Positions 26,602 to 35,342 of a stretch of DNA of 44,487 bases are shown here, piece by piece. Both the position numbers and the translations under genes were made by a program. The notes under the pieces are model-generated. The model was not told the origin of the DNA and did not search any database. It saw only the letters and a list, made by a program, of their open reading frames with translations. Numbering within the stretch: position 1 is the first letter of the stretch; each line of letters starts with the position of its first letter. This DNA is from a virus (Duplodnaviria; Heunggongvirae; Uroviricota; Caudoviricetes). The stretch lies in the IMG/VR virus record IMGVR_UViG_2718218131_000009, positions 1 through 44,487 of that record; one strand, given 5' to 3'.

Positions 26602-26817
26602 TTACTCTCCCCGTGCAGCCTTACGCTTGTCTTCTTTAATCTTGAAATAAAGATTTGTCAGATACGTCAGCAGGCCAAACACCAGACTACCCAGCACACC
26701 TATTGCCGCCCACTGTGAGGGCGTGACTTTATCGAGCAACTGTAAAAACCAGTACCCGGCACTACCTGCTGAGGTGCCATAGGCGACACCCGTTGTTAAC
26801 TTATCCATGGATTTCAT
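26602..26817 (-). CDS. Class II pinholin (S21-like)
   Basis: 71 aa. [26 protein letters not shown]... is close to phage 21 S, including the dual-start Met1/Met4 motif. Confidence 0.85.
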
Positions 26818-26884
26818 AACCCCACCTCGCAGATGCGGGTGCTGTGTAATGGAAATAAAAAGGCCACCTGACGTGGCCACCAGA

Positions 26885-27937
26885 TTATTTCCCCACCAGC
26901 TCGTTTATCTCTTTCACTGTCTGGTTAAACCGCTCTGACTCAAGCTCAACACCTAATGCCCGACGCCCCAGCGCCATTGCTGCTTTTATTGTGGAACCGG
27001 ATCCCATAAAAAAATCAGCAACCAGATCACCTGGTCGACTACTGGCATTGATTATTTGCCTGAGCATATCCGCCGGTTTCTCACACGGATGTTTCCCCGG
27101 GTAGAACTGAACGGGTTTATGCATCCAGACATCGGTATAAGGCACGGAGACTGATACGGAGAAATAGCGCCGGAGAGATTTAAACTCATCCAGCAATTCA
27201 GAATATTTACGATTCAGTGAATCATAAGATGCCACCAGCTGGTGGTGTGGTTGTTCCAGTTGTTGTTCCTGAAACTTCTCTGCCGCTATACGGGAAAACA
27301 GTGCCTGTAACTTCCGATAGTCAGCCTCATTCGGCAACTGCCACTGACTGGCACCAAACCAGTGGGAAACCATATTTTTCTTACCTGTGGCTTCGGCAAT
27401 TTGTTTTGCCGTTATACCCAGTTCGGCACGAGCATCCCTGAAATACGATATCAGCGGTGCCATTATGTGCTGTTTGAGTTCCCTTTCTTTTGCTGCATAG
27501 CCGTCACTTTTGCCGCGATATGGCCCCTGGTAATGTTCAGCAAACAGAACGCGCTCTGTGGCAGGAAAATATGCACGCAGACTTTCTTTATTACACCCAT
27601 TCCAACGTCCGGACGGCTTCGCCCAGATGATATGGTTAAGCACGTTGAAACGTTCACGCATCATGATCTCAATATCAGATGCCAGGCGATGCCCACAGAA
27701 CAGGTAAAGGCTTCCGGCAGGTTTTAACACCCGCCAGAACTGGGCCAGACAGTGGTCCAGCCACTTAAGGTAATCTTCGTCCCCTTTCCACTGATTGTCC
27801 CAGCCGTTGGGTTTCACCTTGAAGTACGGCGGATCGGTAACAATCAGGTCAATGGAATCATCAGGCAGGGACTGAATAAAATGCAGGCAATCAGCGTTGA
27901 TTAAATCAACACTGTTTATTTTTACAGTATTTTTCAT
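26885..27937 (-). CDS. DNA methyltransferase (beta-class N6-adenine/N4-cytosine), orphan
   Basis: Motif IV DPPY near the N-terminus and motif I FMGSGST near the C-terminus. No adjacent restriction endonuclease gene. Confidence 0.85.
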
Positions 27938-28087: not shown

Positions 28088-28315
28088 TTACTGGCAGCGT
28101 CTGAATTTATTCCCGTACCCGCCGTTATCCTTCGCCAGACCCGCCAGAACTAACTGAGTCAGTATTAACTGGCACCGGGCTTCGCTTACTCCGGTAGTTC
28201 TCGTCATCATGCGTGGCGTTACCCACTTGTCAGCAGGTAAGAAATGAAGGACTGCGGCGGCGGTTTCTGTCATATCTTGCTGTTTTAGCATGTCTTTTTC
28301 CCTTCTGGTTAACAT
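28088..28315 (-). CDS. Hypothetical small protein
   Basis: 75-aa ORF between the methyltransferase and the Q-proximal region. No recognised motif. Confidence 0.4.
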   Translation of the reverse strand: MLTRREKDMLKQQDMTETAAAVLHFLPADKWVTPRMMTRTTGVSEARCQLILTQLVLAGLAKDNGGYGNKFRRCQ

Positions 28316-28561
28316 GACATACCAATAACTCTTGTCTAAAAAGCCAGCAAGATAAAAGGTCAGTATTCACGACCACCAGCGTGTTTACTGTACTGCACCA
28401 AGTTTACAGGTACAAAAAAACCGCTCAGCGGCGGGTTTAAGTTGTGTGGCGAAGTAACCACTCTTAACAGCATATTTGATTTTTTACGATTGTAAACGGT
28501 TGATTATTCATCTCCAATAAAAATAATTGTGTAGGTATGCCCTTAACAATGGATAAGAAAC

Positions 28562-29008
28562 ATGAATAAAATGACTGTACTATTACTTAGCGCAACTATC
28601 ATTTCAGGTTGTACTTCTTCCGTACCATTGATAAAAAAAACTCAATCAGGAAAACCTGAGGGGGTTTATCAAAATACGACAAAAGATAAAGTCAAAGATG
28701 CCCTTGTGAATTACTGCAATAGTAGAGGGTTGATAATTTACAACGCTGATAACAGCAGTGTTATATGTGGTAAAGAACTGGAAGGCGGGTCTGCTGTTTT
28801 TGGACAAATGTTAATCGGCAATGCCTATTCAACAACCCCGGTATCAAAAGTCAGATTTACTATCGCTCAAGTTAATAACGATACAAAAGTGTGGGCCGAT
28901 ATGTGGATGGAAACTCAAATGGCAATGGGGCAAGTACAACAAATGGCTATAACAGACAACGCAAGCAAAAACACTATCCAACAACGTCTTGATGAATTAA
29001 AACCTTAA
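28562..29008 (+). CDS. Lipoprotein (moron)
   Basis: Signal peptide with lipobox ISGC. AT-rich, on the strand opposite to the late operon, followed by a hairpin terminator. Confidence 0.7.
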   Translation: MNKMTVLLLSATIISGCTSSVPLIKKTQSGKPEGVYQNTTKDKVKDALVNYCNSRGLIIYNADNSSVICGKELEGGSAVFGQMLIGNAYSTTPVSKVRFTIAQVNNDTKVWADMWMETQMAMGQVQQMAITDNASKNTIQQRLDELKP

Positions 29009-29028
29009 GTAAATTAATTAAATAAAAT

Positions 29029-29050
29029 GGGGAGAATAAATCGACTCCCC
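29029..29050. terminator. Hairpin terminator between the lipoprotein gene and Q
   Basis: GGGGAG-n10-CTCCCC stem with a U-rich tract on the minus strand and a weaker one on the plus strand. Confidence 0.45.
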
Positions 29051-29092
29051 ACACATTAAACTGATTCAATTACCCCCTCAATAAGAGGTCTT

Positions 29093-29473
29093 CTAACGAT
29101 CCATCTCTAGCTCAATTTCTAACATCATTAACATGCCATCAACTACACCTTCAGCCTTTTGCAATAAACGCCCAACCCAGCAATCAGAACGCCCATGTTT
29201 ACGGGCAAGCGCCATAAACGTCATACCACCTACATAATAATCCACTAATAAATCGTGCAAATCGCTGTTGTTCTTTTTCAGGCGAGCCATGCACCCACAA
29301 ATGATCATCGCATCATCGTCACAACATTGCGGGCGGGATTTTACTTTTGAAGGGATTAGTCCTTTAAATCCTGCAGCAATAGACGACCAGGTGACATCCT
29401 CGTGATTATTTGCCACCCATGCCCCCCAACGTTCAAGAACCATTTGAATATCACGCATCAACGTTCTCCACAA
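29093..29473 (-). CDS. Late-gene antiterminator Q (phage 82/21 type)
   Basis: [14 protein letters not shown]...[18 protein letters not shown] matches the QuuD-type Q family. Located upstream of the lysis genes. Confidence 0.8.
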
Positions 29474-34194: not shown

Positions 34195-35342
34195 TTGCGC
34201 CCCCTTACCTCTGAAGGGTTCAGTGACAGATTTATGAGACTGGCCAGTACCGCCGCGTCGTTGATGCGGTCATACAGACTTATAGCCAGCGGGGATTCGG
34301 CTTTTGCCAACATGGGATAAAGCTGCTGCAGCCAGACTTTGTGGATTACCGACAAGTGGGAGTAAAGCACGCTGGCGTTATGTGCGGCATCGCTCAGCGT
34401 GGATGGCCTTGAAAGCTGCTTTTCCATCTGGTTAAAGGCATTGATGTATGCCTCTTTGAACTGGGCAGCACGTTTCCCCGTGAAACCCATAGCAAGAAAC
34501 GCAAAGCCGTCGCGGGTTATTTGATAGCAAGGTAGTTTGCGGCCTGTGCAATCGGTGTAATCACTCACCGAAAAATTGCGGGCAGTGAATGATGCGGAAC
34601 ATTCAAGCGTGCGGATCTTTTTCAGTACATCGTCATGACGTTTGGAGAAGAAGTTGGCAACAGCCAGGGATGAAGTAACAGCCTGACCATCAACGATGGC
34701 AATTTCAGGTTGAGTGAGGGTTGGGATCGTAGCCATGATGGCAGCCTCTTTGGTGATTTTTAATAACTCACCACCAAGGCTTTCCACGACCTTATTGGTG
34801 GTGAGACGTACAGGGGTGGAAATACCGGTCACCAAAGAACCCGGCCCAACCGAAGTTGGCCCTGCACGCCCCACCATAATTTGGGCGTAATGCTGCTCAT
34901 GACACAAAAAAACCGCAAGAGCGCGGTTGTGCGCTTTGGTGAATTCCGGGTTTCCACGCCCGGCACCCGCTTTATAAGGTGCCTGAACAGTGTAACGTCC
35001 CGGAATGGCAGAATCAATGTGCTGGTGGTCCTTCACACTCAACAAAATCACGCCTGAATTTCCACAAAGGACTAAAGCACTCATGCGGGTAGTCTTTGCG
35101 AAGATAGATAACGCGCTGCGTTTCTGGCTCCCAACGAATAACATGGACATAAAGCCCTCTTCCGTCACGAAACCAGCGGTTAAGTTCCTGCACAACTCGC
35201 CCCCCACAGTCAGGTAAAGTTCTCTGTGGTTACTTACAGCCAGGTGATTTGGTAATCTGCATTCATGCCGTAACAACAGGTGTTCAGCGACGCTGACCAC
35301 CAGCTGTTGCGACAAACGGTTATTTGCCGTTAAACTGTTCAT
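34191..35342 (-). CDS. Rha-family regulatory domain protein with ~200-aa N-terminal region
   Basis: C-terminal half (from M203, ATG at 34736) is IPTLTQPEIAIVDGQAVTSSLAVANFFSKRHDDVLKKI, a Rha domain. The upstream 202 codons are in frame and begin with an ATGA overlap to the CII-like gene. Confidence 0.6.
   Translation of the reverse strand: MNSLTANNRLSQQLVVSVAEHLLLRHECRLPNHLAVSNHRELYLTVGGELCRNLTAGFVTEEGFMSMLFVGSQKRSALSIFAKTTRMSALVLCGNSGVILLSVKDHQHIDSAIPGRYTVQAPYKAGAGRGNPEFTKAHNRALAVFLCHEQHYAQIMVGRAGPTSVGPGSLVTGISTPVRLTTNKVVESLGGELLKITKEAAIMATIPTLTQPEIAIVDGQAVTSSLAVANFFSKRHDDVLKKIRTLECSASFTARNFSVSDYTDCTGRKLPCYQITRDGFAFLAMGFTGKRAAQFKEAYINAFNQMEKQLSRPSTLSDAAHNASVLYSHLSVIHKVWLQQLYPMLAKAESPLAISLYDRINDAAVLASLINLSLNPSEVRGRK

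Follow-up and report, generated by a model that had tools for sequence, protein, structure and literature searches.

A probable Q-dependent late promoter cassette of the 933W/H-19B/DLP12 branch in a lambdoid prophage, and co-variation of its promoter dyad with the Q subtype

The stretch of DNA analyzed here (hereafter, the window) comprises 44,487 nucleotides, that is, positions 1 to 44,487 of the IMG/VR virus record IMGVR_UViG_2718218131_000009, and represents a lambdoid prophage whose late region is located on the minus strand. The analysis indicates that the minus-strand segment 28496-28414 is very probably the Q-dependent late cassette, pR', of the 933W/H-19B/DLP12 branch, which works with antiterminators of the Q21 family (PF06530). 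An earlier note had pointed to a minus-strand TTTACA/TATGCT promoter-like pair in this place and had likened it, together with a hairpin that follows, to a pR'-tR' unit. The coordinates of the pair were verified, and the pair is also listed by the promoter scan. The likeness was borne out by homology to the pR', qut and terminator of phage 933W, by the start mapped in the Sakai prophages, by linkage to the Q gene and by the presence of lysis genes downstream, with a caveat that concerns tR'. The pR' segment is an ordinary, already understood element, though it is unannotated in the matching phage records. The features of the cassette and the gene of its antiterminator are as follows:

29093-29458, minus strand: Q antiterminator gene, 121 aa from MRDIQ (the mechanical open reading frame (ORF) starts at 29473)
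28483-28496, minus strand: dyad TTTACAATCGTAAA, which contains the -35 TTTACA; candidate Q-binding element (QBE)
28496-28491, minus strand: pR' -35 hexamer TTTACA, from the sequence and the promoter scan
28474-28469, minus strand: pR' -10 hexamer TATGCT, from the sequence and the scan, aligned to the annotated 933W pR' -10 TATCAT
28462 (+/- ~2 nt), minus strand: inferred transcription start (+1, an A), 7 nt past the -10 hexamer, from the Sakai equivalent
28446-28466, minus strand: conserved box TAAGAGTGGTTACTTCGCCAC, 21 nt, -4 to +17, just past the -10 hexamer
28446-28461, minus strand: possible 5'-terminal RNA stem-loop GUGGU/GCCAC (RNAfold; +2 to +6 pairs with +13 to +17)
28414-28432, with U7 at 28420-28414, minus strand: first terminator hairpin GCCGC UGA GCGGU + U7 (scan, RNAfold), homologous to the first 933W terminator

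Matches to the stretch that begins at the -35 hexamer and ends at +20 were found in 347 phage records, and the segment from the -35 hexamer through the hairpin aligns with those of 933W, TL-2011c, 434 and PA-2. The alignment with these four phages keeps GTTTAC(G/A), the spacer, the -10 hexamer TAT(G/C)(C/A)T, the box in the form TAAGAGTGGTTAC.T.G.CAC, and AACCCGCC...GCGG(G)TTTTT. In the RefSeq entry of 933W, the same segment is annotated as 'pR', putative late promoter', 'qut' and 'possible rho-independent terminator', and a second terminator is found ~200 bp beyond the first one; another 933W record describes the first hairpin as 'homologous to tR''. The 933W record applies the label 'qut' to ACATTGCC. 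The Q protein of the window matches Pfam PF06530 (Phage_antitermQ; E-value, 2.1e-51) and, as a distant relation, the Q21 structures 6p18/6jnx (E-value, 7.5e-9), and the near-identical phage PhiR40_1 carries the gene under the annotation Q. It shares 78% identity with the Q of 933W, and 78-82% with the Q proteins of Shiga toxin (Stx) phages, where the homologous segment is located directly after, and partly inside, the Q gene.

According to the literature, differential RNA sequencing (dRNA-seq) and Term-seq mapped, in each of the two Stx prophages of E. coli Sakai, a primary start and, 258 nt downstream of it, a 3' end (Sy et al., PMC7547250). In the Sakai sequence, a distance of 258 nt fits a start at the A located 7 nt past the -10 hexamer and a 3' end at the final U of the second terminator. 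The coordinates that PMC7547250 gives for Sakai are offset by ~142 bp from NC_002695.2 and only the 258-nt distance is usable, for which reason +1 is known only to ~2 nt. Activity of pR' without Q has been shown for the Sakai homologues only (PMC7547250), and the sigma-70 promoter of the window, TTTACA-16-TATGCT, is predicted from its sequence to be a constitutive pR' candidate.

More than 120 IMG/VR contigs contain an exact match to the box, and 128 box loci were examined for the presence of Q. A PF06530 Q gene was found upstream on the same strand in 106 of them, that is, in every locus with a detectable Q homologue, while in most of the other 22 the upstream sequence is too short for the gene to be visible. 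The distance from Q to the box ranges from 74 to 2494 bp when counted from the end of the tblastn match (629 bp to the start of the box in the window), and from 5 to 2461 bp when counted from the Q stop codon. In all, the box was seen downstream of a same-strand Q gene in about 150 other loci. Because exact box matches are invariant by construction, the test was repeated on an independent set of 80 loci, which were retrieved by Q homology only (one genome per species) and searched with an nhmmer profile of the box. The box was detected downstream of Q in 28 of the 80, including loci from Citrobacter, Trabulsiella, Pantoea, Yersinia, Serratia and Edwardsiella, and 25 further loci, including those of Photorhabdus, Xenorhabdus, Proteus, Morganella and Arsenophonus, carry the promoter dyad beside Q together with a diverged box, TAAGAGTGATAGCTATGTCAC. 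Q homologues with cassettes of the enterobacterial type were also observed in assemblies labelled Nanosynbacter, Martelella, Actinomycetes, Bacillus and Vagococcus (L143, L163, L168, L197 and L210), which most likely reflects contamination or mis-binning of enterobacterial prophage DNA.

The dyad changes together with the antiterminator. Clustering of the Q proteins at 75% identity yielded nine clusters, each of which has its own palindromic element in the same place, centred ~24 bp before the box and at ~-28 from the start, followed by an A tract:

Q cluster 0 (that of the window): TTTACG(AT/TA)CGTAAA
Q cluster 1: GCGGTCCGC
Q cluster 2: GCGTACGC
Q cluster 3: GTTATAAC
Q clusters 4 and 6: TGGAATTCCA
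Q clusters 5 and 8: ATTCGTTACGAAT
Q cluster 7: GCGCACGC

A perfect palindrome of at least 8 bp is present at the dyad centre in 60 of the 67 distinct upstream sequences located by the box, versus 24 of 1,340 control positions. Within cluster 0, three variants of the dyad were found, each with one Q subclade, and the slightly asymmetric TTTACAATCGTAAA of the window goes with its own Q type. The perfect TTTACG(AT/TA)CGTAAA is kept beside Q in Photorhabdus, Xenorhabdus, Proteus, Morganella and others. In the alignment of the Q proteins, the N-terminal 60 residues are conserved; by analogy with the published Q21 structure (PMC6606751), the variable part would correspond to the DNA-reading helix-turn-helix region of Q21, H5-L3-H6. 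Since the dyad sequence changes one-for-one with the Q subtype, the dyad is likely to be the Q-binding element, and is the best candidate for this role in the 933W/DLP12 branch. The co-variation of dyad and Q subtype is the only part of the present findings that may be new: a search of the accessible literature returned no description of it, and no paper that mentions both the QBE and Shiga toxin, which is not proof of absence. No start-site sequence was found in the papers on DLP12.

Two other observations concern the dyad. With Q clusters 1-8 (loci L002, L018, L047 and others), the dyad takes the place of a recognisable -35 hexamer at the normal 16-18-bp spacing, and an A-rich stretch is found immediately before it. 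Initiation at these late promoters may require an UP-like element or Q itself. In the window, the G-to-A change that makes the dyad imperfect (TTTACAATCG) also creates a near-consensus -10 hexamer, TACAAT (28489-28494, minus strand), which the scan pairs with a poor -35, TGGAGA. Judging by this sequence, a second start may exist upstream, at ~28482.

The box TAAGAGTGGTTACTTCGCCAC occurs once in the window, versus 0.02 occurrences expected. Among 73 distinct sequences of the family, the invariant or near-invariant columns are TAnnnT of the -10 hexamer (kept in 70 of the 73), the G two bases before the box, TAAGAGT, the G at +13, and CAC at +15 to +17. The region -4 to +17 probably serves for pausing and Q loading. 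Two -10-like pause candidates were recognized in it: AAGAGT (-3 to +3), which keeps both critical bases (A and T), and TACTTC (+7 to +12; TACATT in 933W), which in the window allele has the A and lacks the final T. An extended -10-like element, TGnTAAGAG, was weighed as well, with no clear assignment among the candidates.

The same region of the leader can be folded. Across the 73 sequences, 90.7% of the cells of the +2 to +17 stem are paired, versus 21-68% in slid registers, and one of its pairs runs G-C, G-U and A-U, a level that was reached by one of 500 shuffles. This suggests a 5'-terminal stem-loop in the leader RNA, resting on a single covarying pair; its role might be RNA protection or Q loading. 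A CRP site, with which the PA-2 record labels part of the box, was considered and rejected: the half-sites are 8 nt apart instead of 6, the match is poor, and the annotation, which dates from the 1980s, is unsupported.

The hairpin past the box has to be viewed together with the genes and the terminator-like structures that follow it:

28349-28374, minus strand: second, weak terminator-like hairpin GGTCG...TGACC followed by TTTTATCTT (scan; -8.4 kcal/mol, z -0.85)
28088-28315, minus strand: first ORF of the late transcript, 75 aa mechanically and 67 aa in the annotation of relatives (ORF67); function unknown
26885-27937, minus strand: DNA methyltransferase gene (PF01555; E-value, 2.2e-42), whose homologues in relatives are annotated as DNA methylase
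27012-27037, minus strand: terminator-like hairpin with seven U inside the methyltransferase coding sequence, on the sense strand (-11.2 kcal/mol, z -2.7)
26853-26878, minus strand: stronger terminator GGCCAC...GTGGCC followed by TTTTTATTT, between the methylase and holin genes (-12.2 kcal/mol, z -2.6)
26602-26817, minus strand: holin gene with a dual start (MKSM), the first lysis gene

It had been proposed in the earlier note that a short GC hairpin and seven T residues follow the promoter-like pair after about 45 nt. The scan does list GCCGCTGAGCGGT followed by TTTTTTT as terminator-like, with hairpin and T run at 28435-28414, and the distance is fair, the T run lying 49 nt and the stem ~37 nt past the -10 hexamer. 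RNAfold gives a stem of 5 bp, including one G-U pair, with a 3-nt loop and an energy of -6.3 kcal/mol. The description of the stem as weak is right for the allele of the window, which is a weakened one (GCGGTTTTTTT versus GCGGGTTTTTT). In the family at large, a GC hairpin followed by at least four U and starting at +42 to +66 is present in nearly all of the 62 distinct leaders; most of these hairpins have 8-bp stems and energies of ~-11.7 kcal/mol, and in the divergent members the hairpin sequence is unrelated and the feature is kept. As it persists with unrelated sequences and also in pR' of the phage 21 type, the early terminator-like structure is, to judge by these leaders, a selected feature of the family. 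The hairpin at 28432-28414 is probably a first, leaky terminator, which would yield a leader of ~47-49 nt in an unspecified fraction of rounds.

Several points weigh against the proposed interpretation of the cassette. The hairpin of the window is weak (z -1.2), and 26 of 200 shuffles fold as well as it does. The same hairpin is found in phage Ayreon, far downstream of a differently sized Q with its own annotated terminator, and it therefore belongs to the downstream module at least as much as to pR'. The homologous hairpin of Sakai (~-12 kcal/mol) does not prevent the formation of the 258-nt StxS precursor in lysogens (PMC7547250); because this stronger hairpin is read through, termination at +49 may be inefficient and the short RNA a minor one. 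The box offers no clean sigma-dependent pause hexamer, as AAGAGT straddles the start site and TACTTC has no T at the sixth position, and its invariance in the IMG/VR set follows from a search pattern that required the exact box. In addition, tight physical linkage could contribute to the association between the dyad and the Q subtype, and the binding of Q to the dyad is itself inferred. However, the linkage persists across many different insertions, and the sequences past the -10 hexamer recombine freely between the Q clusters.

It is possible, with a probability that we put at about one third, that the promoter is pR' but that 28432-28414 is not a working tR', being instead a leaky pause, an RNA-stabilising structure or a module boundary, with no discrete ~49-nt RNA produced. 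Q-independent transcription would then stop at the second hairpin, at the terminator inside the methyltransferase ORF and, chiefly, at the one preceding the holin gene. The passage of the Sakai RNA to +258 through a stronger homologous hairpin (PMC7547250), the low energy of the window allele, the occurrence in Ayreon far from its own pR' and the stronger terminators downstream all fit this explanation, as does the association of the weakened allele with the ORF67-methylase module, irrespective of the Q cluster. It is harder to reconcile with the retention of a hairpin and U tract at +42 to +66 in nearly all members, even where the sequences are unrelated, which argues for selection on a terminator-like function. 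Moreover, the U7 tract directly abuts the stem, and the homologous hairpin is annotated as a terminator in two GenBank records. As for the Sakai data, RNAs shorter than ~50 nt may have escaped the libraries, and the Northern blot detected the 74-nt 3'-derived species only.

The downstream structures were compared as well. The second hairpin (28349-28374) is conserved as part of the downstream module, and in phage Ayreon a terminator is annotated at the place equivalent to 26853-26878. No Rfam family reached its gathering score in 28250-28650. A permissive search gave weak hits only; the best of them, STnc130 on the opposite strand (24.4 bits versus a threshold of 55), whose alignment rests on the A tract and the hairpin, was judged to be due to chance. 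A blastn search of the window with +50 to +275 of 933W gave nothing beyond chance matches (11-21 nt); neither the +258 terminator nor the functional 74-nt part of StxS is present.

In the window, the Q gene is separated from pR' by a gene of the opposite orientation:

29012-29052, minus strand: terminator-like hairpin GGGGAG...CTCCCC with a U-rich tail, just past the Q stop codon and adjoining the convergent lipoprotein gene at its end
28562-29008, plus strand: reverse-oriented cargo ('moron') gene for a predicted lipoprotein of 148 aa with a signal peptide and the lipobox ISGC
28500-28527, plus strand: promoter-like site TTGATT-16-AATAAT of the lipoprotein gene (scan; putative)

Some observations fit the explanation that the site is a promoter unrelated to Q, serving the ORF67-methylase cargo, and that the true late promoter lies elsewhere, for example at 29092-29010, with transcription running antisense through the lipoprotein gene. 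The site stands 629 bp away from Q instead of next to it, the genes that come first after it have no role in lysis, and a hairpin with a U-rich tail (29052-29012) follows Q. Nevertheless, the pR' that stands next to Q in 933W is homologous to this segment; the element and Q are found together in spite of many different genes in between, and the dyad of the element changes with the Q subtype. Neither a promoter-like site (by the scan) nor a copy of the box was found between the Q stop codon and the end of the lipoprotein gene. Furthermore, the same element directly precedes the holin gene in 434, PA-2 and DLP12, which lack the methylase module. A promoter independent of Q is therefore very improbable.

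The distance between Q and pR' finds its counterpart in other phages. In PA-2, 434 and DLP12, the same pR' box and a dyad of the same class (TTTACGTACGTAAA) are located beyond a reverse cargo gene inserted after Q; the cargo there is a porin gene (lc/nmpC) of ~1.7 kb and pR' stands directly before the holin gene, whereas the cargo of the window is the lipoprotein gene. No pR' is annotated at the box in the records of these phages. Two reverse ORFs are found between Q and the box in cdtI, and a reverse gene for a Blc lipocalin is located just past a related Q in Lambda_4B5. In cdtI, the 23 bp between Q and the convergent gene are filled by a bidirectional terminator; with only 23 bp available, the late promoter of this phage must lie beyond the cargo. 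The position of pR' 0.63 kb from Q in the window is thus due to a reverse lipoprotein gene at a recurrent insertion point, and the gap between Q and pR' is a cargo-gene insertion site, not a leader.

By consensus match alone, the promoter and the hairpin are no more than what chance would give. The pair TTTACA/TATGCT, with a spacer of 16 bp, has 9 of 12 consensus matches in the promoter scan, and 7 promoter-like sites are present in the region versus 5.8 +/- 2.5 expected from shuffles. Terminator-like sites as a class are in excess (14 in the region versus 5.2 +/- 2.6 expected), which does not single out the hairpin at 28432-28414. As the site counts and the hairpin energy are unremarkable, the call is weak on consensus grounds alone; its significance comes from conservation, and homology appears decisive for the identity of the element. 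The idea that the promoter-like pair and the hairpin are chance matches without function, to which these counts and the hairpin energy would be congenial, can be given practically no weight and is effectively refuted already by the base-for-base conservation across hundreds of phage and bacterial records, besides the box being expected only 0.02 times and a start having been mapped at the equivalent position in a homologue.

The observed homology, the linkage to Q and the co-variation of dyad and Q subtype can be accommodated in a mechanism in which we infer the binding of Q to the dyad, the pause site and the efficiency of termination at the hairpin. The sigma-70 promoter (TTTACA, 16 bp, TATGCT) would start transcription at ~28462. 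The dyad TTTACAATCGTAAA, which covers the -35 hexamer and the upstream part of the spacer, would be the probable binding element of the phage's own Q, and the near-invariant box at -4 to +17 probably provides a promoter-proximal pause at which Q is loaded on RNA polymerase. Without Q, some polymerases would stop at the hairpin and U7 (+31 to +49) and give the leader of ~47-49 nt, while the remaining ones would be stopped at 28374-28349, 27037-27012 and 26878-26853, which act as back-ups. With Q, all of the terminators would be read through into ORF67 and the genes for the methylase, holin, endolysin and Rz. The holin, endolysin and Rz genes are located at 26817-25186 on the minus strand, after the ORF67 and methylase genes, and the holin gene is proposed as the target of the Q-dependent read-through.

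In lambda, late control relies on a constitutive late promoter that contains a QBE, on loading close to the promoter, and on a short terminated leader RNA in lysogens. The general logic of the pR'-6S RNA-tR' unit of lambda (PMC7547250 and textbook accounts) is common to the cassette of the window. However, the Q family of lambda is unrelated, its leader is of 194 nt as compared to ~49 nt predicted here, and there is no sequence similarity.

The Q of phage 21 belongs to the same Pfam family, PF06530, though it is only ~33% identical to the Q protein of the window. As in the candidate of the window, a Q-specific element is located between or over the -35 and -10 regions at PR'21, and pR' of the phage 21 type is likewise followed by a very early hairpin and U7. 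Q21 binds to TGAGCA repeated in direct orientation between the two promoter hexamers (PMC6606751), an arrangement also seen in a Stx prophage locus of the phage 21 type (L130), whereas the element of the window is an inverted repeat; a search for TGAGCA in 28496-28469 found none. The pause element of phage 21, TAAGCT, is located at +2 to +7, and the similar TAAGAG of the window at -4 to +2. Q21 antiterminates by forming a nozzle on the RNA exit channel (10.1101/651190; PMC6606751), and by homology the mechanism of the Q of the window would be the same.

The closest known relatives of the cassette are those of 933W, H-19B and Sakai Sp5/Sp15 (the StxS locus), with homology to the window in both hexamers, the spacer between them, the box and the first hairpin with its U7. 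The Stx-phage dyad, TTTACGATCGTAAA, and that of the window, TTTACAATCGTAAA, belong to one class, and late genes follow in both cases. In the Stx phages, the cassette overlaps the 3' end of the gene for a 144-aa Q, whereas the window has a Q of 121 aa and the intervening lipoprotein gene. The homology stops right after ...TTTTTTTGTACC, just past the first hairpin; beyond it the Stx phages carry tRNA and stx genes, and the window has the ORF67 and methylase genes instead. The window also differs in a hairpin with one G-C pair fewer, in a variant half-site, and in that it does not have the StxS segment. In the Stx2a phage TL-2011c (L004, 3226-3345), an in-frame 3' remnant, ...AAMSLGRRAIGVELETERFEQTVREVQDLVSQNG*, was observed just past the StxS terminator, and it matches the C-terminus of the methyltransferase that is intact in the window (26885-26990). 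The sequence suggests that the pR'-stx interval of Stx phages may have been derived from an ORF67-methylase module by deletion or replacement.

As regards the neighbouring genes, the phages PhiR40_1 and PhiR55_1 are 99.9% identical to the window over the late-region stretch, and the order Q, lipoprotein gene, promoter is found in 184 of 5,426 complete Escherichia coli genomes. The lipoprotein matches phrog_3152 (function unknown; E-value, 1.3e-104), and ORF67 matches phrog_331 (E-value, 3.1e-26), a family of unknown function; the Pfam search returned no match for either the lipoprotein or the 75-aa ORF. The hairpin at 29012-29052 has an energy of -13.0 kcal/mol (z -3.1), with a T-rich tail on the minus strand only. 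In the promoter-like site of the lipoprotein gene, TTGATT (28500-28505) and AATAAT (28522-28527) of the plus strand stand back to back with the -35 hexamer of pR', 3 bp apart; on this arrangement, the cargo gene and the late operon would share one common divergent control region.

A hypothetical protein of 37 aa is annotated in PhiR40_1 (L003, 4028-4141) at the equivalent of 28360-28473 of the window (minus strand). Its ATG lies within the -10 hexamer TATGCT, and it spans the leader and both hairpins. Since the start codon is upstream of the inferred transcription start, this protein is probably spurious, an annotation artefact. Elsewhere in the window, at 34794-34982 on the minus strand, Rfam C4 antisense RNA (83.6 bits) was detected beside isrK (67 bits), both above their gathering scores. 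The pair heads a long ORF, the C-terminal part of which resembles an antirepressor or a Rha-type protein, and the locus, located here within a lambdoid prophage, is similar to two modules, the c4/ant immunity module of P1 and IsrK-AnrP of Gifsy-1.

The basic picture of Q antitermination is unchanged by these findings, and the identification of pR' fixes the position of the late transcription start in the window. The same type of cassette controls the release of Shiga toxin in 933W-type phages and the lysis genes of DLP12. For the branch as a whole, a broader proposal can be made, the case for which we consider evenly balanced: the Q proteins of the 933W/DLP12 branch would recognise subtype-specific dyads centred ~28 bp upstream of the start (TTTACGNNCGTAAA, GCGGTCCGC, GCGTACGC, TGGAATTCCA, ATTCGTTACGAAT, GTTATAAC), unlike the direct repeats of Q21, and would all share an invariant loading box (TGnTAAGAGTGG...) and a 5' stem-loop. 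Such a portable 'Q address plus common loading platform' would stay with the Q gene as cargo is inserted and as downstream modules are swapped at the first hairpin. If this dyad code is readable, it would allow a prediction from sequence of which prophage Q proteins trans-activate which late operons, including stx, in strains with multiple prophages, and it would provide a set of orthogonal antiterminator/promoter pairs.

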